A stretch of 64,000 bases of DNA from Bacteroidales bacterium UBA4814 (lineage in GTDB: Bacteria; Bacteroidota; Bacteroidia; Bacteroidales; UBA7960), in the NCBI GenBank assembly GCA_002402465.1, contig DHFW01000002.1, positions 39,027-103,026 of the forward strand, written 5' to 3'. A program made the position numbers and the translations under genes. The notes under the pieces are model-generated. The model did not search any database, was not told the origin of the DNA, and worked only from the letters and a program-made list of their open reading frames with translations. Below, one piece after another: positions 43 to 64,000 of the stretch. Each line of letters begins with the position of its first letter. Positions within the stretch are counted from its first letter, which is position 1.

Positions 43-1242
43 ATGAGCAAAGTACTGATTATTGGAGCTGGTGGGGTAGGCAACGTGGTAACCCGCAAAT
101 GTGCTGCCGTGCCGGAGGTGTTTACCGACATTATGCTGGCCAGCCGCACCCTTGAGAAATGCGACCAGATAGCCCGCGACATTGGCGACGACCGGGTGAA
201 GACCGCGCAAGTGGATGCCGATAACGTGCCCGAGCTGGTGGAACTGATCAACAAGTTTAAGCCCGATATGGTTATCAACGTGGCTTTGCCATACCAGGAC
301 CTCACCATCATGGAGGCCTGCCTCGAAACCAAGACCCATTACCTGGACACCGCCAACTATGAACCCAAAGATGTGGCCAAGTTTGAATACAGCTGGCAGT
401 GGGCTTACCACGACCGGTTTAAAGATGCCGGACTGCTGGCCATTTTGGGTTGTGGCTTCGATCCCGGTGTTACCGGCGTTTTCACCGCCTATGCCGCCAA
501 GCATTACTTCGACGAGATTCACTACCTCGATATTGTGGATTGCAACGCCGGCGACCACGGAAAGGCCTTTGCCACCAACTTCAATCCCGAAATAAACATA
601 CGCGAGATTACCCAAAACGGCCGCTATTGGGAAAACGGAAAGTGGGTGGAAACCAAACCCCTGGAAATCAACAAGCCCATCGAATATCCCGAAATAGGAC
701 CACGCGATTCCTACCTGCTTTATCATGAAGAGCTGGAGTCGTTGGTGAGGCACTTCCCCACCATTAAAAGGGCACGCTTCTGGATGACTTTTGGCAAGCA
801 ATATATCAACTACCTCAACGTGCTGCAAGAGGTGGGTATGACCAGCATTAAGCCGGTCAATTTCAAGGGCATGGATATTGTGCCCCTCGAATTTTTGAAA
901 GCCGTGCTTCCTGAACCCTCTTCGCTGGGCGAGGGTTACAAGGGTCAGACCTCCATCGGTTGCCAGATTCGTGGCATAAAAGATGGCAAAGAACGCACTT
1001 ATTATGTTTGGAATAATACCGAGCATGCTGCTGCTTACCGCGATGTGAAAGCACAAGGCATCAGTTATACCACCGGTGTTCCGGCTATGATCGGCGCCAT
1101 GATGGGCCTCACCGGAAAATGGACCGGCAAAGGGGTATTCAACGTGGAACAGTTCGATCCTGATCCGTTTATGGAAGCCCTGCCGAAGTACGGACTGCCC
1201 TGGCACGAGCAAATTGATGAGCCACTACCCGTGGAAAAATAA
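43..1242 (+). CDS. carboxynorspermidine synthase/dehydrogenase (saccharopine dehydrogenase family)
   Basis: 399-aa ORF with ATG at 43. N-terminal Rossmann motif IIGAGGVGNVV and saccharopine-dehydrogenase-like sequence. Paired with carboxynorspermidine decarboxylase downstream, as in the alternative (nor)spermidine pathway. Confidence 0.8.
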   Translation: MSKVLIIGAGGVGNVVTRKCAAVPEVFTDIMLASRTLEKCDQIARDIGDDRVKTAQVDADNVPELVELINKFKPDMVINVALPYQDLTIMEACLETKTHYLDTANYEPKDVAKFEYSWQWAYHDRFKDAGLLAILGCGFDPGVTGVFTAYAAKHYFDEIHYLDIVDCNAGDHGKAFATNFNPEINIREITQNGRYWENGKWVETKPLEINKPIEYPEIGPRDSYLLYHEELESLVRHFPTIKRARFWMTFGKQYINYLNVLQEVGMTSIKPVNFKGMDIVPLEFLKAVLPEPSSLGEGYKGQTSIGCQIRGIKDGKERTYYVWNNTEHAAAYRDVKAQGISYTTGVPAMIGAMMGLTGKWTGKGVFNVEQFDPDPFMEALPKYGLPWHEQIDEPLPVEK

Positions 1243-7756: not shown

Positions 7757-9430
7757 ATGAGAACTATAATAGTATTTGTTGCCCTGGCTTTTTTAACTCA
7801 AGCCCTTGTCGCCCAGCAACCATTCGATTTTTCTGAGCAAGCTGTTATTGAGCGTCTGCAAAAAGACATTTACACCCTGGCCTCCGACTCCTTGCAGGGG
7901 CGTGAAGCAGGCACCATTGGCGAACGCAAGGCGGCCGATTACCTTAAGGCCCGCATGCAGGAAGCCGGTCTAAAGCCTCTGTTCGGTGAGTCTTACTTTC
8001 AGGAAGTACCCTTCCCGGGGGAGTTTCTGGCTGGTCAGGACAATTTTTTGGTAATTGACGGTCAGGAGTATGAGTTTGAAAAAGATTTCTTTGCCATGCC
8101 CAACACAGGTAATGCCTCGGCCAATGCTCCCACGGTGTATGCAAGTTTTGGGCTGGAAGGCGTGGAAGGAATTGACAACTATAAGGAGCTTGGCAGTGTG
8201 GCCGGCAAGGTGGTGGTGCTCGAATATTATTCGCCTGAAGGCCTGGAAGAAAAGCTGGATATCAACTCGCGCGATGCCCTGTCCAACAAAATTGAACTTG
8301 CCATTAAAAAAGGTGCGGTAGGAATCGTTTTGGTCAATAGTCTTTCCTGGCGCACTGACCCGCGCATTAGCCTGCGCATGAACGTGCCCCGCGAAGACAT
8401 TCCGGTGGTTTTTGCCACCTCTGCAATTGCCGAAATATTAAAAGGACAGCCAGGGATAGAAATTTACTTATCGACTGAGCTCGAACGTGAGATGCACACC
8501 GGTATCAATGTGGCCGGCTACTGGGACAACAATGCACCCACAACCGTAATCATTGGCGGGCACTACGACCACCTTGGCTTCGGTGGTTCGGGATCGCGCA
8601 ACCCCGGCGAACGACTTATTCACCCCGGTGCCGACGACAACGCCAGTGGCACCGCCGGTGTTATTGAAGCTGCCCGATATCTTGTAAACTCCGACCTGAA
8701 GAAACACAACTATATTTTTATTGCCTTTACGGCAGAAGAAAAAGGCTTGCTGGGCAGCCGCTATTTTGCCGACAGCGATGCTTACGACATGAAGAAAGTG
8801 AATTACATGCTCAACTTCGACATGCTTGGCAGGCTCAACGATTACAGCCTGGCGCTGATCGGCACCGGCACCACGCCCATGTGGGAGGATCTCATCGACC
8901 GGGCAGCCCCTGAGCATTTCAACATTCGCAAAAGCTCTGGTGGCTTGGGTGGATCAGACCATACCGCATTTTACCTGAAAGACATCCCGGTGCTGTTCTT
9001 TTTTACTGGCATTCACGACGACTATCACCGCCCCGGAGATACCCCCGACAAGGTGAACTACAAGGGCACGCAGGAGATACTGAACTTTGCTTATGACTTG
9101 ATGCGACTAATTGAAAACGAAGACCGGCTGGCTTTCACACCCACACAAACAACCGATAGTCGCCGTCGTCGCTCCGATGGCGTTACTCTGGGGCTGATGC
9201 CCGACCATGCCTATGAAGCCCAGGGGCTGAGGATACAGGCCCTAATCGACGACCGCCCCGCACAAAAAGCTGGAATACAGAATGGCGATGTGATTGTTCG
9301 CATCGACAATGATGAAATTAAAGAGATACAGTCTTACATGCGTGCGCTCGAGAATCTGCAGGCAGGCCGCACCACCAGCATTACTGTGAAAAGAGGAGAG
9401 CAAGAGCTTACCTTTGAAGTGCAACTGTAA
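7757..9430 (+). CDS. secreted M28 family aminopeptidase with C-terminal PDZ domain
   Basis: Signal peptide. M28 metal-ligand blocks HYDHLG, GADDNASG, EEKGLLGS, NFDMLG, SDH. C-terminal PDZ-like GLRIQALIDDRPAQKAGIQNGDVIVRID. Confidence 0.8.
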   Translation: MRTIIVFVALAFLTQALVAQQPFDFSEQAVIERLQKDIYTLASDSLQGREAGTIGERKAADYLKARMQEAGLKPLFGESYFQEVPFPGEFLAGQDNFLVIDGQEYEFEKDFFAMPNTGNASANAPTVYASFGLEGVEGIDNYKELGSVAGKVVVLEYYSPEGLEEKLDINSRDALSNKIELAIKKGAVGIVLVNSLSWRTDPRISLRMNVPREDIPVVFATSAIAEILKGQPGIEIYLSTELEREMHTGINVAGYWDNNAPTTVIIGGHYDHLGFGGSGSRNPGERLIHPGADDNASGTAGVIEAARYLVNSDLKKHNYIFIAFTAEEKGLLGSRYFADSDAYDMKKVNYMLNFDMLGRLNDYSLALIGTGTTPMWEDLIDRAAPEHFNIRKSSGGLGGSDHTAFYLKDIPVLFFFTGIHDDYHRPGDTPDKVNYKGTQEILNFAYDLMRLIENEDRLAFTPTQTTDSRRRRSDGVTLGLMPDHAYEAQGLRIQALIDDRPAQKAGIQNGDVIVRIDNDEIKEIQSYMRALENLQAGRTTSITVKRGEQELTFEVQL

Positions 9431-56657: not shown

Positions 56658-57482
56658 CTAAAACAGCCTGCCGGCTGCCTCGTACAAGCGGATGGCGTTC
56701 GCGGTCTGAACCCATATTGCTGAGCCCCGCACGAGCCCCGATCTGATGTTTTCTTCAGGTAACAAAAATACGGTTTCCTTATGAAGCACAAAATCAAAAA
56801 CGACCAATTCTTTCCCGGTAAACCACATAAGCTGGTTTCCCTTAACCTGAAATCTTTCTATCCCCTGTTTTTCAATCGTAAAAAGATAATTGCCGAAACT
56901 GTCGAACACCGCTATTCCTGCCTCAGGATCACTAATATATACCCGGTTGTCGGATTCAGCAATAAACGCGGGCTCGCCAAATGCCGGCAGTATCTCGAAA
57001 AAAGGCAGGCTTTGTGCCTGAAGGCGAAAGCTCTGGCTGAAAAGCTGCAGGCGCATTTGGTGGGGTGCAAACACCCAGAACCCGCCCTGGGCCGAGCTGC
57101 AAATAGCCCCGGGGAAGCCTGCCAGCATGCTGGAGGCTGTTTGCGGAGTTTCCTTTACGGCCAGGTTGCGGTCGAGCCAAACAATGTGCATAAAATCGCG
57201 GTGATAAACCATCACGTTCAGCGGGTCGCTGGCATCGACTAAATGTATTTGCCCGAAGCGCGGATTGGAATAATGCAGGTAAGTTTTGCTGGCGGGCTCA
57301 TATTTGGTGAGTCCCTCCCGGTTGGTCCAGTAAAGGTTGCCCAGAGGATCGACGGTAAAAAAATCGCTGTTGGCTGCAATGCTTTCCACCAGGGTTAGGG
57401 CGGGGCTTGATTGGGCCAAAGTTCCCTGGCCTGCCATTAACCCTAAGAAGGTAAAGAAAATATAAACGGTTAACGATCTCAA
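56658..57482 (-). CDS. hypothetical secreted protein (beta-propeller-like repeats)
   Basis: Signal peptide MRSLTVYIFFTFLGLMAGQGTLAQ. The TTG start at 57482 overlaps the GH3 stop (TTGA). No family recognised. Confidence 0.55.
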   Translation of the reverse strand: MRSLTVYIFFTFLGLMAGQGTLAQSSPALTLVESIAANSDFFTVDPLGNLYWTNREGLTKYEPASKTYLHYSNPRFGQIHLVDASDPLNVMVYHRDFMHIVWLDRNLAVKETPQTASSMLAGFPGAICSSAQGGFWVFAPHQMRLQLFSQSFRLQAQSLPFFEILPAFGEPAFIAESDNRVYISDPEAGIAVFDSFGNYLFTIEKQGIERFQVKGNQLMWFTGKELVVFDFVLHKETVFLLPEENIRSGLVRGSAIWVQTANAIRLYEAAGRLF

Positions 57483-58993
57483 TCGTTTATGAATTTAAGG
57501 ATCTCGTCAACGTATTTGCGCTCATTGTAAAGGCGCGGTACTTTGTTCTGCCCGCCAATTTTGCCCTTCGATTTGAGCCAGCGGAAAAAGGTGTCGCGGG
57601 GCACGCTGTGCACCACCGGCAACTTCAGCATCAGGTTGGAGCTGCGCTTGGCTTCATAGTCAGAGTTGAGGCCTTGCAGCTCCTGGTCGAGCACTTTAGT
57701 AAACTTTTCAAGGCTATCGGGCTCCACTTCAAATTCGATGAGGTATTCGTGGGCAGCCGATTCGTTGTCTTTCAGATAAATCGGTGCTGCCGTATATTCA
57801 GAAAGGATGGCCCCGGTGGCCTGGCAAGCTGCTTCCAGCGCCTTATCCGAATTGTCAACAATCACTTCTTCACCAAAAGCGTTGATAAAGTTTTTGGTGC
57901 GTCCACTGATTTTAATGCGGTAGGGCGAAAGGTTTGTAAACCGTATGGTGTCGCCGATCATATAACGCCACAGGCCGCCGTTGGTGGTAATTACCAGGGC
58001 ATAGTTGGTTTCGGTATCCACGCCATCGAGCGTTACCACTTTGGGGTTGGGCTTGCCAAACTCTTCCATGGGGATAAACTCATAGAAAATGCCATAGTCG
58101 AGCATCAGCAGCATTTCGTCGGAGCAAGCCCGATCCTGAATGCCAAAGAAACCTTCGGAGGCGTTGTAGGTTTCCAGGTAATACATTCGCTTTGAAGGGA
58201 TTATCTTCTGGAATTGCTCGCGGTAGGGGATAAAGCTTACTCCACCATGGTTGAAAAGCTCCAGGTTTGGCCAAACCTCCAGTATGTTGTTTCGACCGGT
58301 GATCTCCAGGATTTTTTTTAGCAGCACCAGGTTCCACGAAGGCACCCCGCTAATGCTGGTTACGTTTTCAGTAATGGTGGCTTGGGCAATCTTGCCGAGT
58401 TTCACCTCCCAGTCGTCGAGCAGTGCCAGTGAAAGGTCGGGGGTGCGAAAAAACTCGCCCCATGAGGGGAAGTTCTGCAGCAAAATGGCGGAGAGGTCGC
58501 CAGAATAGGCCCTGTTGTTGAATTCGCTGACCTTATGGCTGCCGCCCAGTACCAGGCCCTTGCCGTTGAAAACCTTGTTTTCGGGTCGGTTGTGGCAGTA
58601 AATTGCCATCACGTCTTTACCTCCCTTCAGGTGGCAGTCCTCCAAAGCTTCGTCGCTCACGGGAATAAACTTGCTTTTGTCGCTGGTGGTGCCGCTCGAT
58701 TTGGCAAACCACCGAATTTCGGTGGGCCAGATCAGGTTGTTTTCGCCCTTGCGCAATCGCTCAATGTAGGGTTTTACATCCTCATAGTCCTGAAGCGGTA
58801 CTCTTTCTTTAAAGTCTTTGTAACTGCGCATACTCGCAAAGCCGTACTTCTTTCCCCATTCGGTATCTTCCGAAAAGGTAATGAGCTTATTCAGCAAATC
58901 TTCCTGTACTTCGTGGGGGTTATCCATAAAGTATTCGATTTGCGAAATTCGCTTCTTCAGGTACCAGGAAATAACGCTGTTAATAAAGGGCAT
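57479..58993 (-). CDS. GH3 family (auxin-responsive-promoter-type acyl acid amido synthetase-like) protein
   Basis: 504 aa. N-terminus INSVISWYLKKRISQIEYFMDNPHEVQEDLLNKLI and the SSGTTSDKSKFIP adenylation-type motif are typical of bacterial GH3 proteins. Confidence 0.75.
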   Translation of the reverse strand: MPFINSVISWYLKKRISQIEYFMDNPHEVQEDLLNKLITFSEDTEWGKKYGFASMRSYKDFKERVPLQDYEDVKPYIERLRKGENNLIWPTEIRWFAKSSGTTSDKSKFIPVSDEALEDCHLKGGKDVMAIYCHNRPENKVFNGKGLVLGGSHKVSEFNNRAYSGDLSAILLQNFPSWGEFFRTPDLSLALLDDWEVKLGKIAQATITENVTSISGVPSWNLVLLKKILEITGRNNILEVWPNLELFNHGGVSFIPYREQFQKIIPSKRMYYLETYNASEGFFGIQDRACSDEMLLMLDYGIFYEFIPMEEFGKPNPKVVTLDGVDTETNYALVITTNGGLWRYMIGDTIRFTNLSPYRIKISGRTKNFINAFGEEVIVDNSDKALEAACQATGAILSEYTAAPIYLKDNESAAHEYLIEFEVEPDSLEKFTKVLDQELQGLNSDYEAKRSSNLMLKLPVVHSVPRDTFFRWLKSKGKIGGQNKVPRLYNERKYVDEILKFIND

Positions 58994-59126
58994 AAGCTAA
59001 GTTTTCAGGTTTCGGGCCAACATGCAAAAATAAGGATTTAGCTGCATAATGCACCCAAAGCAGCTATTTTAAAGTAGAATTTATTGGTAGTTATTTTCAT
59101 TTCGCATTCCTTAAGGGTAAAAGTTT

Positions 59127-59134
59127 TATATTTG
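59127..59134 (+). promoter_or_regulatory. candidate -7 box TATATTTG
   Basis: Perfect TAnnTTTG, 37 nt upstream of ATG 59171. Confidence 0.35.
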
Positions 59135-59170
59135 ATAAACCACAAGCCTTTGTCAAAATACCAAGCGGAT

Positions 59171-60049
59171 ATGGATTATATTAAAACGTTTTGTTATGAC
59201 CCCGGGCGGCCTCTGGCAGATTATGAAACTGATTTCACAGGCCCTTTCCGAAAGAAAAAAGATGCCAATGAGATTTTTCAGGAAGGCATTTTGCGCTTGC
59301 GCGAATTGCAAAGCATGATGTATGCCCAGGGCAAGCACGGGATGCTGATCATATTGCAAGCCCTTGATGCAGCGGGTAAAGATGGCATTATTAAGCATGT
59401 GATGAGCGGGGTAAACCCCCAGGGTTGCCAGGTAAAGAGTTTTAAAACCCCTTCGAGCGAAGAGCTGGCGCATGATTTTATGTGGCGCTGCCTCAAGGCT
59501 TTGCCTGAAAGGGGTAATATTGGCATTTTTAACCGCTCGTATTACGAAGAGGTGTTGGTAGTGCGCGTGCATCCTAACTTTTTGCTCAGGCAGAATATCC
59601 CGGGGCTCGAACATGTGGAGCAGGCCGACCAGGCTTTCTGGGAAACCCGCTTTCGGGATATTTCCAATTTTGAACGCTATTTTTCCAACAATGGCTACCT
59701 TGTGCTCAAGTTTTTCCTGAATGTGTCGCGCAAGGAACAGAAAAAACGCTTCCTTTCGCGCATCAACGAGCCTTCAAAAAACTGGAAGTTTACCATGGCC
59801 GATGTGAATGAGCGCCAGCATTTTGACCAGTACCAGCATGCCATCGAAGATATGCTAAGGAATACCAGCCACAGCTTTGCTCCATGGTATGTGGTTCCGG
59901 CTGATAAAAAATGGTTCATGCGCACTGCCGTTTGCCGCATTATTGTGGAGCATATGGAAAAACTTGGCCCGGCATACCCCGATGCAGGCCCAGCCCACCT
60001 GCAGGATATTGAAAAGGCGCGCATAATGCTTGAAAATGAGAAGGAGTAA
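59171..60049 (+). CDS. polyphosphate kinase 2 family (polyphosphate:nucleotide phosphotransferase)
   Basis: Walker A QALDAAGKDG and a PPK2-type lid region. ATG 59171 (MDYIKTF...) is preferred to the track start at 59084. Confidence 0.82.
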   Translation: MDYIKTFCYDPGRPLADYETDFTGPFRKKKDANEIFQEGILRLRELQSMMYAQGKHGMLIILQALDAAGKDGIIKHVMSGVNPQGCQVKSFKTPSSEELAHDFMWRCLKALPERGNIGIFNRSYYEEVLVVRVHPNFLLRQNIPGLEHVEQADQAFWETRFRDISNFERYFSNNGYLVLKFFLNVSRKEQKKRFLSRINEPSKNWKFTMADVNERQHFDQYQHAIEDMLRNTSHSFAPWYVVPADKKWFMRTAVCRIIVEHMEKLGPAYPDAGPAHLQDIEKARIMLENEKE

Positions 60050-60098: not shown

Positions 60099-61640
60099 TT
60101 GAACTTTTTCCGTAGCATAGCCGGTTTGGAAATTTACTCGAGCAAACAGCGCTGGAAGCTGTTTTTGCTTGTATTTGCCGCACTGATTGTAATCGTTTCC
60201 CTTTATTTTACCGACATCCTGGTAAAGAAAGTGGCCGAAGACGAGCGACAGAAAGTGCTGCTCTGGGCCGATGCGGTGCAGCGACAGGCCAACCTTGTGG
60301 TATATACCGAAGAGCTGTTCGAGAGTATTAAGGACGAAGAGCGCAAGCGAGTGGAGCTCTGGGCCATGGCCAACCAAAAGGTATGGGAACCCACCACCGA
60401 AAATGTCGATAATTTCTTTCTGGAAATACTGGAATCGAACACAACCATTCCGGTGCTGGCAACCGACGATGGCGGAAACGTGATTACCCACCGCAACCTC
60501 GACCCCGCATTTGGCGATCCAAGGGTGTTCGATGAGGCCTTAAAAGATTATTTTTCTGTCTACGATCCGATCCCAATCACCTATTATTCAGGCATATCAT
60601 ACGAAACCCTCTACATTTATTACCAGGATTCTCATGTCTTTACCCAGCTTCAAAGCCTTTTCGAAGACCTGATAGAATCCTTTATCTCGGAGGTGGTGGT
60701 AAACTCTGCCAATGTGCCGGTTATTATTGTTGACAATGCCAGGAGAAAAATTATTGCGGCAGGCAATATTGATCAGCCCGAGCCCGATGACAGCCTTAGT
60801 GTGAGGCAGGTAATACAGTCGCTGGCCGAAAAAAACACGCCCATCACCATTCAGTTGCCTATGTATGGCACCTGTCATGTGTTTTATTCCAACTCCTTTC
60901 TGCTTACACAACTTAAATATTATCCCATTGCACAGCTTCTGATCATTGGCATATTTCTGATTGTGGCCTATATCCTTTTCAGCACCTCGCGCAATGCTGA
61001 ACAAAACCAGGTTTGGGTAGGCATGTCGAAAGAAACGGCCCACCAGTTGGGCACTCCATTGTCGTCGCTGGTGGGCTGGCTCGAAATTCTCAAGATGAAA
61101 GGCGTGGATAAGGGTACAATTTCAGAAATTTCGAAAGATGTGAAAAGGCTGGAAAATATTACCGAGCGTTTCTCTAAAATCGGTTCTCCAGCCAAGCTGG
61201 TGCCCGTTGATATTATTGAAACCACCCGCGGGGCAGTGGAATACATGAAAAACCGCACTTCCAAAAAAGTGAAATTCAAAATTCTCTCTTCCGACAAGGA
61301 GGTGATGGTGCCGCTCAACACCAACCTTTACGAGTGGGTCATTGAAAATATTTGCAAAAATGCGGTAGATGCCATGGACGGGGTTGGAAACCTTACCATC
61401 GAAATTGAAGACCAGCCAAGGAATGTAATCATTGACATTACCGATACCGGGAAAGGCATTGTGGCATCAAAGCACAAAACCGTTTTCACGCCCGGTTACA
61501 CCAGCAAGCAAAGGGGCTGGGGCCTCGGACTGTCGCTCAGCAAGCGTATTATCGAAAACTACCATAAAGGAAAACTCTTTGTGAAAAGGTCAGAGGTAAA
61601 CAAAGGAACCACTTTCCGGATTATACTGAATAAGCAATAA
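60099..61640 (+). CDS. sensor histidine kinase (orphan; no adjacent response regulator)
   Basis: Two TM segments flank a roughly 240-aa extracytoplasmic region. H-box ETAHQLGTPLSSL, N-box ENICKNAVDA, G-boxes DTGKGI / GWGLGLS. TTG start. Confidence 0.85.
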   Translation: MNFFRSIAGLEIYSSKQRWKLFLLVFAALIVIVSLYFTDILVKKVAEDERQKVLLWADAVQRQANLVVYTEELFESIKDEERKRVELWAMANQKVWEPTTENVDNFFLEILESNTTIPVLATDDGGNVITHRNLDPAFGDPRVFDEALKDYFSVYDPIPITYYSGISYETLYIYYQDSHVFTQLQSLFEDLIESFISEVVVNSANVPVIIVDNARRKIIAAGNIDQPEPDDSLSVRQVIQSLAEKNTPITIQLPMYGTCHVFYSNSFLLTQLKYYPIAQLLIIGIFLIVAYILFSTSRNAEQNQVWVGMSKETAHQLGTPLSSLVGWLEILKMKGVDKGTISEISKDVKRLENITERFSKIGSPAKLVPVDIIETTRGAVEYMKNRTSKKVKFKILSSDKEVMVPLNTNLYEWVIENICKNAVDAMDGVGNLTIEIEDQPRNVIIDITDTGKGIVASKHKTVFTPGYTSKQRGWGLGLSLSKRIIENYHKGKLFVKRSEVNKGTTFRIILNKQ

Positions 61641-61731: not shown

Positions 61732-62442
61732 ATGAAACACAAAGTCATTCTTCTGCTTTTGCTGGGTTTTTCACTTTTTGCCGTTGGGTTTCGTTATCTG
61801 AGTGTCGACCGCATTATGCTGCAAATGCACAGTCAGAGCCTGCACAAAGGGAAAAGGGCCGATGTGAATGCCAATCTTTTTTACCAGTCGCTTGATGGCA
61901 GGCTTGTTACCCGATATACTGAGCCGGTAGATCAGGTAATGATCACCAACAACAAAGGCGAAATGGCCATATACAACGAAAAGGACAACACCGTTTATCG
62001 CACCCAGAGCCTGGAATACAGTTCCGAAAACAACCTGATTTATTTTTTCCTGCAAGGCCAAACCAGCGATCTTGGCCTTGGCCAGCTTGGATTTCAGCTA
62101 ATGGAAACCCTTTTTGAAGATGGCCTGGTTATTACCCGATGGTTTCCTCCTTCGGGCATGTATCACCTCTTTAGCCATGTAGAACTGGTACACGAAAATT
62201 ACCTGCCCATTTACACCGGATATTATGATGTAAATAAAAAACTGGTAAAAAAAGTTTTTTACACTGATTACCGCGATTTTCCCGAAATATCCCTTCCGCT
62301 AACCATTACTGAATTCAATTACCTGCCGGAAGGCGATTCCATTGTGAACAGGGTGAAGTTTTCCAACGTGCAGATAAACCATCGTGCCGTGAGTTCGTGG
62401 TTTAATTTTAAGATTCCTAATGACGCAAAAATCATTGAATAG
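61732..62442 (+). CDS. exported LolA-like protein (hypothetical)
   Basis: Signal/anchor MKHKVILLLLLGFSLFAV. The pattern ANLFYQSLDGRLVTRYTEPVDQVMITNNKGEMAIYNEKDNTVY and the ending FNFKIPNDAKII resemble LolA/LolA-like folds. This is a weak assignment by eye. Confidence 0.45.
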   Translation: MKHKVILLLLLGFSLFAVGFRYLSVDRIMLQMHSQSLHKGKRADVNANLFYQSLDGRLVTRYTEPVDQVMITNNKGEMAIYNEKDNTVYRTQSLEYSSENNLIYFFLQGQTSDLGLGQLGFQLMETLFEDGLVITRWFPPSGMYHLFSHVELVHENYLPIYTGYYDVNKKLVKKVFYTDYRDFPEISLPLTITEFNYLPEGDSIVNRVKFSNVQINHRAVSSWFNFKIPNDAKIIE

Positions 62443-62899
62443 AATTGCCGGCTTCATTTTTTTGTTGCTCCTGCTGGTTGTTGTCCAGGTTACTCCGGGT
62501 TATGGTCAGGTGGTCCGTTCTGATGTTGAACTGCTTTCGGAGAATATTTGCCCGGGTTGTAATCATAGTTCGCATGGCCATGTTGGCCTGCTTCAAACAC
62601 GGTCGGGCTCGTGGCTGGCCCGAAACAATCCGGTATCGCTTACTTTCACGGGTTTAATGTTTGTTTATCAGCGGTATATTTCTCCCCAATTGCCTTCGGA
62701 GTGCCTGTATGAAACATCTTGTTCGCACTTCAGTAAAAATCTGATCAGCGAACACGGCCTGATAAGGGGGATTGTTTTTACGGCCGACCGCCTTACGCGT
62801 TGCAACCGGGTTGCGGCCATCGATGTAAACCCCGTTGTTATTGGCCAGGAGTCGGGCAAGATACAGGAGTCTGTCGAAATCTACAAGTTGGAAAAATGA
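62420..62899 (+). CDS. YidD-family (DUF37 'haemolytic domain') protein with N-terminal extension
   Basis: The core FVYQRYISPQLPSECLYETSCSHFSKNLISEHGLIRGIVFTADRLTRCN aligns with the E. coli YidD pattern VYQR.ISP....C...TCS......G..G.....R...C. About 60 extra N-terminal residues carry a signal/TM and CPGCNHSSHGH. It overlaps the upstream gene by 23 nt. Confidence 0.7.
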   Translation: MTQKSLNRIAGFIFLLLLLVVVQVTPGYGQVVRSDVELLSENICPGCNHSSHGHVGLLQTRSGSWLARNNPVSLTFTGLMFVYQRYISPQLPSECLYETSCSHFSKNLISEHGLIRGIVFTADRLTRCNRVAAIDVNPVVIGQESGKIQESVEIYKLEK

Positions 62900-63753
62900 T
62901 CAGGGCCTTTGTTTTTGTCTGCTGTGCGCTTTTTTTTCTGAATACCTCAGCCCAGGAATCCGTGCGGCGTGAACTCGCCTTTGTCCGTCATTTGTTGAGC
63001 CGCAACGAGTTGAAGGAGAGCCTGTTTGTGCTGGAAAGGCTGCAGGCAAAAGAAACCTCACTGATAGATTCGGTTAATTATTATCACGGCTGGATTCGTT
63101 ATCAGGAAAAAGACTTGTTGCCCTCGGCAGCCTTTCTGCTTCAGGTTTCCTCCGAAAGCCCCCAGTTTGTGAAGTCACGGCTTTTCGCCTCTTACAATAT
63201 GGCACACGCAGGCCTTGTCGATACAGCTGATTCTGTTCTGGCCCGCCTTCATTTGGGCGACTCCCCAGTGCTGCAGGCTTTAACTAATTTTGAAAGGGCA
63301 GGGGTTGCCTTGCTTGGCAGGAATTATGACGAATTTTCTGAGAGGTCCCGCGATTTCTCAGGCGACTGGAATGCCTTTGCCCTGCAGGAAAGAAACCTGG
63401 TAGAATATGCCCTGACATTGAAGCAGCAGCCCGGGCGGTCGCCCGCAGTGGCTGGTCTGCTCTCGGCGGCAGTGCCAGGCTTGGGAAAAATTTATGCAGG
63501 AAAAACCGCCGAGGGAATAGCCGGATTTTTGTATGTGGGGGCCATGGCCCTTGCTTCCTGGGATTTTTACCGCAAACTGGGCTCCTCAAACGGGCTTTTT
63601 ATTGTATCTGCTTCAATAACAGGAGTTTTCTACCTCGGTAATATCTGGGGCAGTGCGGTGGCTGTGAGACGGCTGCGTAATGAGTTTAATCATGAAATGG
63701 ATCAACGCATTTTGTTTGATATGCATATTCCTTTGCGCAACATTTTTCAATAA
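62896..63753 (+). CDS. hypothetical envelope protein: signal peptide, helical-repeat region, C-terminal TM pair
   Basis: ATG 62896 overlaps the YidD-like stop (ATGA). MIRAFVFVCCALFFLNTSAQ signal. The C-terminal hydrophobic block SAAVPGLGKIYAGKTAEGIAGFLYVGAMALASW...LFIVSASITGVFYLGNIWG is DUF5683/TM2-like by eye. Confidence 0.55.
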   Translation: MIRAFVFVCCALFFLNTSAQESVRRELAFVRHLLSRNELKESLFVLERLQAKETSLIDSVNYYHGWIRYQEKDLLPSAAFLLQVSSESPQFVKSRLFASYNMAHAGLVDTADSVLARLHLGDSPVLQALTNFERAGVALLGRNYDEFSERSRDFSGDWNAFALQERNLVEYALTLKQQPGRSPAVAGLLSAAVPGLGKIYAGKTAEGIAGFLYVGAMALASWDFYRKLGSSNGLFIVSASITGVFYLGNIWGSAVAVRRLRNEFNHEMDQRILFDMHIPLRNIFQ

Positions 63754-64000
63754 AGAAAAAGTTTTTGCACAGGACAGCGAATTACAGCAGGGCGACAGTT
63801 TGTTTGCCCAAGGTAACTTTTTCGAAGCGGCCATTGCTTATGAGCGCGTGTATTTTTTATCTCCAAGTGCTGAAGAAAGAGTGGTTGCCAACCTGCGCAA
63901 AGCTGCCGCCCTAAAACAACAGGGCGAGTTTGTAAGGGTGGTGAGCGATCTTCAAAGGTCACTGCCTCATGCCGGCAATGAATCCACGCAGATCGAAATT
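63692..64000 (+). CDS. partial CDS (runs off the window): signal peptide + TPR-like protein
   Basis: Hand-translated open frame of 103 codons from ATG 63692 to the window end: MKWINAFCLICIFLCATFFNKEKVFAQDSELQQGDSLFAQGNFFEAAIAYERVYFLSPSAEERVVANLRKAAALKQQGEF... It overlaps the upstream gene by 62 nt. It is absent from the supplied track because it has no stop. Confidence 0.5.
   Translation, partial: MKWINAFCLICIFLCATFFNKEKVFAQDSELQQGDSLFAQGNFFEAAIAYERVYFLSPSAEERVVANLRKAAALKQQGEFVRVVSDLQRSLPHAGNESTQIEI

Follow-up and report, generated by a model that had tools for sequence, protein, structure and literature searches.

The stretch analysed here (hereafter the window) comprises 64,000 nucleotides (nt) of contig DHFW01000002.1 from Bacteroidales bacterium UBA4814, and the element of interest is a chain of four overlapping open reading frames (ORFs) on its forward strand. 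ORF1 encodes a protein with a LolA-type fold, ORF2 an exported paralogue of the YidD-domain proteins ('sYidD'), and ORF3 and ORF4 two related proteins, each predicted to combine a tetratricopeptide repeat (TPR)-like region with a C-terminal membrane hairpin (Table 1). ORF1 and ORF2 overlap by 23 nt, the stop codon of ORF2 and the start codon of ORF3 share the ATGA at 62896-62899, and ORF3 and ORF4 overlap by 62 nt. All four ORFs, their coordinates and these overlaps had been described in an earlier, sequence-only reading of the window, and recomputation gave identical values. The gene caller used on public copies of the contig picked the same ATG codons, and the overlaps survive a check of the starts, as the alternative downstream starts would remove conserved signal peptides. 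The same reading held that the unit runs past the end of the window, which is indeed the case, as an extended public copy of the contig (locus L001; window coordinate = L001 + 52895) contains the rest of ORF4 and further genes; positions beyond the end of the window are given below as window-equivalent. Judged from the sequences, these four genes make up the core of an envelope operon that is conserved and, so far, restricted to Bacteroidota; all of its products carry predicted N-terminal export signals. We have high confidence that the module is genuine and conserved, belongs to the envelope and includes an exported paralogue of YidD.

Conservation was assessed in GTDB with one genome per species, in which 126 relatives of ORF2 were detected and 80 loci were retrieved; module genes in these loci were identified by iterated hidden Markov model (HMM) searches of their ORFs, and the conservation of neighbours was assessed by all-against-all clustering of the neighbouring genes. 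Conservation of the gene order across Bacteroidota had been named in the sequence-only reading as a check on its proposal, and the order ORF1-ORF2-ORF3-ORF4 recurs in about 80 species-level loci, wherever the contig permits. The carriers include metagenome-assembled genomes (MAGs) of Bacteroidales, members of Marinilabiliales and Cytophagales, the genera Marinilabilia, Alkaliflexus, Arcicella and Flectobacillus, and genomes labelled Chitinophaga, Sphingobacteriales and Lentimicrobiaceae, and all retrieved loci (n = 80) belong to Bacteroidota. The overlaps recur along with the order. For ORF1 and ORF2, 59 of 79 loci share an overlap of 20 or 23 nt; for ORF2 and ORF3, 43 of 81 loci have one of 4 or 1 nt; and ORF3 and ORF4 overlap in every one of the 77 loci compared (range 35-77 nt; 53-77 nt in 75 of them and exactly 62 nt in 42). 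The four-gene arrangement is thus conserved far beyond chance. The closest relative is locus L007, with 81% DNA identity.

In four genomes the module occurs twice, the second copy having diverged; this copy is complete in L013, L014 and L062 but cut off by the contig end inside the fourth gene in L069 (Table 1). The YidD-like proteins of these second copies are 134-139 amino acids (aa) long, retain the signal peptide and have a core nearer to canonical YidD (CVFAPSCSEYA). That these genomes have the entire module twice suggests that the set was duplicated long ago.

The overlap of about 62 nt between ORF3 and ORF4, kept in all 77 loci, is of a length and stability unusual among overlapping bacterial genes. 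In the window, positions 63692-63753 are read in two frames, one for the highly conserved tail at the ORF3 C-terminus, EMDQRILFDMHIPLRNIFQ, and the other for the ORF4 signal peptide.

Table 1. Features of the module, its neighbours and its second copies. Positions refer to the window unless a residue range or a locus is named; a slash within a signal peptide marks the predicted cleavage site.
Feature	Position	Strand	Remarks
Sensor histidine kinase	60099..61640	+	513 aa; HATPase_c E 1.5e-19; HisKA E 1.6e-05, 25.3 bits (cutoff 26.9)
ORF1, LolA-fold protein	61732..62442	+	ATG 61732; 236 aa; residues 1-25 signal peptide or anchor
ORF2, exported YidD-domain paralogue (sYidD), predicted	62420..62899	+	159 aa
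ORF2 signal peptide, predicted	residues 1-30	+	...TPGYG/Q; sequence
ORF2 variable linker	residues 31-70	+	conserved SD.ELL motif; family alignment
ORF2 YidD core, then short C-terminal tail	residues 76-139 (62645-62836)	+	PF01809/TIGR00278
ORF3, TPR-like protein with predicted membrane hairpin	62896..63753	+	285 aa
ORF3 signal peptide and TPR-like helical ectodomain	ectodomain ~residues 25-177	+	...NTSA/QE; AlphaFold 2 (AF2), sequence
ORF3 motif SAAVPGLGKIYAGK, then two Gly/Ala-rich hydrophobic helices	helices ~residues 204-228 and 233-256	+	hydropathy
ORF3 conserved basic/amphipathic tail	C-terminus	+	sequence
ORF4, ORF3 paralogue	63692..64000 (window part, N-terminal 103 aa)	+	full 297 aa, ends at window-equivalent 64585 (L001:10797-11690)
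ORF4 signal peptide, TPR-like domain, motif STFMPGAGQIYSGS, hydrophobic hairpin	63692 to window-equivalent 64585	+	...KVFA/QD; L001
Fifth-gene pseudogene remnant	L001:11715-11984 (window-equivalent 64610-64879)		47% identity to residues 23-110 of the L007 protein; in-frame stops
RHS repeat-associated core fragment	L001:12377-12850 (window-equivalent 65272-65745)		157 aa; TIGR03696 31.9 bits (cutoff 32.5)
TM2-domain gene	L001:13035-13454 (window-equivalent 65930-66349)	-	139 aa; PF05154 44.3 bits (cutoff 27.9)
Second module copy	L013:5322-8006	-	complete
Second module copy	L014:7838-10528	-	complete
Second module copy	L062:9149-12390	+	complete
Second module copy	L069:9733-11733	+	contig stops inside fourth gene

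The YidD-like assignment of ORF2 is well supported by profile searches, with 59.6 bits against PF01809 (curated cutoff 27; E 2.6e-16) and 61.5 bits against TIGR00278 (cutoff 40), both matching residues 76-139. Three cysteines (C95, C101 and C128) are invariant among 24 family members and align with the cysteines of a canonical Bacteroidales YidD, to which ORF2 is 31% identical across the entire 64-aa core; the NP pair immediately before the core is invariant in the family alignment as well. A Cys3-His zinc site was considered and dropped, as a canonical Bacteroidales YidD reads SCGP rather than RCHP. The N-terminal extension noted earlier is present, but its length is about 75 aa before the YidD match instead of the roughly 60 first given. 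The CPGCNHSSHGH Cys/His patch, singled out in the same reading, falls in the variable linker and is not conserved in the family alignment, so that a metal-binding role for it was rejected.

The relatives of ORF2 form a tight family of 150-160 aa. An exhaustive HMM search of 1.84 billion representatives returned about 8000 YidD-like clusters (50% identity) at E<=1e-3, with 156 at E<=1e-30 making up the extended subfamily. The core motif is present in 172 representatives, and 165 of these are extended N-terminally by at least 45 aa; the 165 mostly show a strong hydrophobic h-region (148) and a K/R preceding it (135), with a small-x-small/Q site in 64. Such a site fits the Bacteroidetes Q-rule for substrates of signal peptidase I (PMC5837995, PMC10653852), which the signal peptides of ORF2 (GYG/Q), ORF3 (TSA/QE) and ORF4 (VFA/QD) all match. 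By hydropathy, no second hydrophobic segment of transmembrane (TM) strength follows the signal of ORF2. The h-region and Q-rule cleavage site, together with the lack of a second TM-strength segment, suggest that the N-terminal segment is a Sec export signal throughout the family, and the YidD domain is predicted to be periplasmic.

Alternatively, the hydrophobic segment of ORF2 could be an uncleaved anchor, with the YidD core turned back to the cytoplasmic face; ORF2 would then partner YidC/Sec as an ordinary YidD of greater length. In agreement with this explanation, the YidD core is intact together with its three cysteines, and canonical YidD acts in membrane-protein insertion at the cytoplasmic membrane according to a review (PMC8082313, citing Yu et al. 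2011). However, the K/R residues before the h-region fit an N-in orientation with the C-terminal part outside, and the hydropathy profile and the small-x-small/Q sites described above also argue against a retained cytoplasmic core. The genomic context points the same way. Within 10 kb of the module, no rnpA or yidC was found among the called genes, and a Bacteroidales MAG (L063:679-1279, minus strand) contains a separate canonical yidD of 73 aa that overlaps rnpA and lies about 4 kb from the module. Thus, an uncleaved anchor is very improbable. The coexistence of a canonical yidD and the module in L063 indicates that the module YidD is an additional paralogue; as to the canonical short yidD that the sequence-only reading suggested looking for elsewhere, the 64-kb window contains no other YidD-like ORF, but the relative L063 does carry one beside rnpA.

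For ORF1, the LolA-like label proposed from the sequence stands at the level of the fold, but not for LolA proper. The AF2 model (pLDDT 91.3) shows an unclosed antiparallel beta-barrel with a helical lid, as expected for the LolA superfamily. A Foldseek search of this model against the PDB retrieved 3buu, LolA of several species, 4z48 and Porphyromonas gingivalis LolA3 (9tp6) with E 3.5e-11 to 1.6e-10 and TM 0.44-0.61, and matches to the superfamily including P. gingivalis LolB extend over E 3.5e-11 to 1e-7 with TM up to 0.61. Among the 91 PDB matches with E<=0.001, the top 36 are all LolA, LolB or LolA-like, and ependymin-related proteins and RseB (E ~4e-6, TM 0.3-0.4) rank lower. In profile searches, ORF1 itself scores 17.7 bits against PF17131 LolA_like (cutoff 30), a family that 35 of 42 relatives match at E<=0.01 (best 3.7e-7), and PF03548 matches only one of the 42. 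The LolA equivalog TIGR00547 gives 19.4 bits against a cutoff of 112, covering residues 205-235 only, and the ORF1-family profile had no significant match, LolA included, among the PDB sequences. Falling below the LolA profile cutoff yet matching the LolA superfamily in structure, ORF1 is, on the evidence of its model, a protein of LolA-type fold and not LolA itself.

The signal peptide, helical region and C-terminal hydrophobic helices attributed to ORF3 from its sequence are corroborated by the AF2 model and by hydropathy, which agree. The model is all-helical with a pLDDT of 94.5. Foldseek returned generic TPR structures only, with probability ~1.0 but E ~0.1, and the best geometric match is YfgM (8zht_B; TMt 0.71, rmsd 3.6, 174 columns). 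ORF3 has no Pfam family match, and the best TPR-type profile within its family (n = 52) reaches E ~8e-4, with ANAPC3 matched in 4 members and TPR_16 in 3; the ORF3-family profile had no significant match among PDB sequences. The TPR-like description of ORF4 agrees with its profile matches, which are weak: TPR_2 gives 21.3 bits (cutoff 27), TPR_21/PF09976 gives 14.1 bits (cutoff 25.5), and DUF5683 is matched weakly. ORF3 and ORF4 are 27% identical over 197 aa (E 4e-7) and share the layout of signal peptide, TPR-like region and hairpin, and judged by this similarity the two are paralogues.

Downstream of ORF4, the next 340 nt are a decayed fifth gene. In L007, an intact fifth gene at the same position (8138-9097) encodes a helical protein of 319 aa, and about 30 relatives have it intact, L063 and L066 among them with the gene placed divergently upstream of ORF1. 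The RHS fragment lies between the decayed fifth gene and the TM2-domain gene in the present genome and is missing from that place in L007.

The RHS fragment bears on a further explanation, in which the module would be an exported, membrane-active effector with accessory or immunity proteins, i.e., a toxin or defence-type system. In its favour are the RHS-core fragment, 0.7 kb downstream in this genome, and the former name of the Pfam YidD family, Haemolytic domain. However, the fragment is not conserved, L007 has the intact fifth gene there, PADLOC returned no matches for the module (0), and no relatives of the module were found in viral contigs. The genes flanking the core are unrelated housekeeping genes in stable synteny, and signs of mobile elements are absent. 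A defence or phage origin was rejected, as neither PADLOC nor the viral contigs gave matches, and the explanation as a toxin or defence-type system is hardly credible.

The TM2-domain gene is a nearly universal neighbour, the one additional gene that the clustering singled out, and is present in 68 of 81 loci; the 13 loci without it include several whose contigs end just past the module. Its product consists of a signal peptide, about 60 aa, a TM2 hairpin and a conserved C-terminus (DDISKYxDNPKFFMW). Most commonly the gene is convergent with the module and directly follows it, with a median gap of 55 nt. In Marinilabilia and Alkaliflexus, it is co-directional and upstream of ORF1, and in L013 and L014 it is co-directional and downstream of the second module copy. 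The persistence of the linkage through three arrangements suggests a functional tie between the TM2 protein and the module.

These linkages also bear on another explanation, in which each envelope gene would have a function of its own and the products would form no complex; the genes would simply be transcribed together, and the overlaps would be those of a compact operon. Each protein belongs to or resembles a different family, and short overlaps are common in bacterial operons. However, all four genes have stayed together over order-level divergence and have been duplicated jointly (L013, L014, L062 and L069), the unusual overlap of roughly 62 nt between ORF3 and ORF4 persists in each of the 77 loci, and the TM2 linkage has come through three rearrangements. 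Separate functions without a joint complex are thus quite improbable.

On the upstream side, the sequence-only reading had described an orphan histidine kinase. No response regulator was found within 10 kb of it. The kinase is more than an upstream neighbour, being a clade-specific member that heads the operon. Hydropathy places TM segments at about residues 17-46 and 272-298, enclosing a periplasmic region of about 225 aa. In 49 of 81 loci the kinase gene immediately precedes ORF1 in the same orientation, and in L021, L031, L045, L047 and L050 it adjoins or runs into the start of ORF1. It is absent from the remaining 32 loci, which include all Arcicella, Marinilabilia, Alkaliflexus and Chitinophaga-labelled genomes and mostly have unrelated housekeeping genes upstream, a few contigs ending too near ORF1. 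Extra upstream partners in the kinase-less loci were considered and rejected, as the neighbours there are unrelated housekeeping genes. Scans for sigma-70 promoters and intrinsic terminators around the operon gave results at chance level with models that are not those of Bacteroidota, and are thus uninformative on co-transcription with the kinase.

Given this position, the module could be the sensory input of the adjacent kinase, with the LolA-fold protein acting like RseB or NlpE to sense mislocalised lipid or lipoprotein and with the anchors and sYidD relaying or gating the signal. The kinase placement, the appearance of RseB among the fold matches of ORF1 and the large periplasmic region between the two TM segments are consistent with such a role. 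However, the 32 kinase-less loci keep the core and the TM2 gene, the RseB matches are far weaker than those to LolA-type proteins, and no response regulator is nearby. A sensory role, the strongest of the alternatives considered, is unlikely and is weakened by the many kinase-less genomes.

The region 57479-60049, 5' of the kinase, has genes on both strands, the minus strand encoding a 504-aa GH3-family protein and the plus strand a PPK2 polyphosphate kinase (59084-60049). Both are syntenic in close relatives only (28 and 22 loci, respectively) and lie outside the core. In two relatives, ORFs of 150-160 aa without a Pfam match sit directly 5' of ORF1 and 3' of proline dehydrogenase (L062:4786-5238, where the ORF overlaps the ORF1 start, and L084:4703-5185), and may represent a clade-specific extra component.

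The products of the module probably come together at the outer surface of the cell membrane, and as a tentative proposal, in which our confidence stops somewhat short of even, they would form a periplasmic-face platform that handles hydrophobic or lipidated cargo. ORF2 would be exported so that its YidD domain lies on the periplasmic side, opposite the housekeeping YidD. The platform itself would be a hetero-oligomer of ORF3, ORF4 and perhaps the TM2 protein, embedded in the cytoplasmic membrane and exposing the TPR domains of ORF3 and ORF4 to the periplasm. The exported YidD-like protein would be docked on it and, by analogy with YidD, would sit at the membrane surface and touch hydrophobic segments. 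The LolA-fold protein, whose half-barrel fold is, by AF2 and Foldseek, that of LolA-type carriers of hydrophobic ligands, would be docked there as well and would receive or deliver a lipoprotein, a lipid or a nascent membrane segment at the periplasmic face. Through translational coupling, the conserved overlaps would ensure matched subunit amounts. The suggestion in the sequence-only reading of a stoichiometric complex, for envelope insertion or for the handling of lipoproteins, is a reasonable hypothesis. A further version of this platform, which we regard as doubtful, is a novel envelope machine in which ORF3, ORF4 and the TM2 partner, as three hairpin proteins of TM2 type, position the YidD domain and the LolA-fold carrier in the periplasm. 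If correct, it would be a step of membrane exit or entry for lipidated or hydrophobic cargo with no Escherichia coli counterpart, and it would provide the first functional context for bacterial TM2 domains and for a non-cytoplasmic YidD.

Several observations weigh against the platform proposal. We infer both the complex and its cargo from gene neighbourhood and domain content, and the kinase linkage in 49 loci could equally indicate signalling. ORF1 has no clear signal-peptidase site, and the resemblance of ORF3 to YfgM is a generic TPR match (Foldseek E ~0.1). The C-terminal helices of ORF3 and ORF4 are only moderately hydrophobic (Kyte-Doolittle maximum ~1.7), corresponding to 2 or 3 membrane segments. 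The ORF3 anchor scores 14.5 bits against the TM2 domain (cutoff 27.9), and an hhalign comparison of the ORF3 family with the TM2 family found next to the module reached P 0.044 (27 columns); homology of the ORF3/ORF4 anchors to TM2 is not claimed, as the profile-profile match is non-significant, and homology of the hairpins to TM2 or DUF5683 is only suggestive. To our knowledge, moreover, the molecular role of canonical YidD itself is poorly defined.

The individual parts of the module belong to or, by their sequences, resemble known families, whereas the exported YidD variant, the families of ORF3, ORF4 and the fifth gene, and the assembly as a whole appear to be undescribed so far. Literature searches on YidD with LolA or YidC, and on TM2/YozV/DUF5683, found no account of this cluster, and recent papers on Bacteroidota LolA/LolB paralogues leave it uncovered (PMC11885536, PMC13103446). 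YidD and TM2 domains are both widespread and their molecular functions essentially unknown, and an operon linking an exported YidD paralogue, a LolA-fold carrier, paired TPR anchors and a TM2 protein supplies a concrete set of partners. The module may also bear on the open question of lipoprotein trafficking in Bacteroidota. Flavobacterium johnsoniae without any LolA/LolB homologue is viable and still localises its surface lipoproteins (PMC11885536), suggesting that alternative routes exist for lipoproteins or hydrophobic cargo.

Compared with canonical YidD, ORF2 keeps the three family cysteines and the YQ..ISP motif. However, canonical YidD is about 73-85 aa long and in E. coli is encoded in the rpmH-rnpA-yidD-yidC-trmE cluster, whereas ORF2 has 159 aa with a predicted Sec signal peptide and a linker of about 45 aa, and its gene lies away from rnpA/yidC, coexists with a canonical yidD and represents a distinct subfamily. 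The C-terminal GG.DPVP motif of canonical YidD is replaced in ORF2. The predicted location differs as well, as the domain is predicted to be periplasmic in ORF2 but is cytoplasmic in canonical YidD, which Yu and co-workers are said to have placed at the cytoplasmic face of the membrane in 2011. The review mentioned above lists canonical YidD as a putative SecYEG-associated insertion factor at the cytoplasmic membrane (PMC8082313).

With LolA, LolB and the PF17131 proteins (3buu, 3bk5, 4z48, 9tp6), ORF1 shares the unclosed beta-barrel with internal helices and, as predicted, export. Its size (236 aa) is that of the larger LolA-like proteins and LolA3, which have about 230-240 aa (PMC13103446). 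However, ORF1 is only 9-16% identical to all solved relatives and is not encoded beside lolCDE, and a LolB-type partner is not evident. LolA3-type paralogues are likewise without an established function (PMC11885536, PMC13103446).

YfgM is a periplasmic TPR protein associated with the Sec translocon (PMC8082313), and ORF3 and ORF4 resemble the YfgM-PpiD pair in their predicted membrane-anchored, periplasm-facing TPR-like domains, with ORF4 faintly matching TPR_21, the YfgM family. Their linkage to a protein that resembles an insertion factor is also reminiscent of translocon accessory factors (PMC8082313). However, the anchor of ORF3 and ORF4 is a C-terminal hairpin after a cleaved signal peptide, in contrast to the N-terminal TM segment of YfgM, the sequence similarity of ORF3 is non-significant (E 0.04-0.1), and a PpiD-like partner is absent from the module.

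Among the TM2 proteins (PF05154; YozV/COG2314; TM2D1-3), the product of the partner gene is a bona fide member, whereas ORF3 and ORF4 stay below the TM2 threshold (14.5 vs. 27.9 bits). The anchors of ORF3 and ORF4 do resemble TM2 proteins in their G.G..Y.G entry motif, and the IMG label of several family members is TM2/YozV. We know of no function for any bacterial TM2 protein; the metazoan TM2D proteins matter in Notch signalling and in Alzheimer genetics. The three metazoan TM2D genes have shared phenotypes (PMC8714088), and as in that case, where several such proteins occur together, the module brings together several candidates of this kind.

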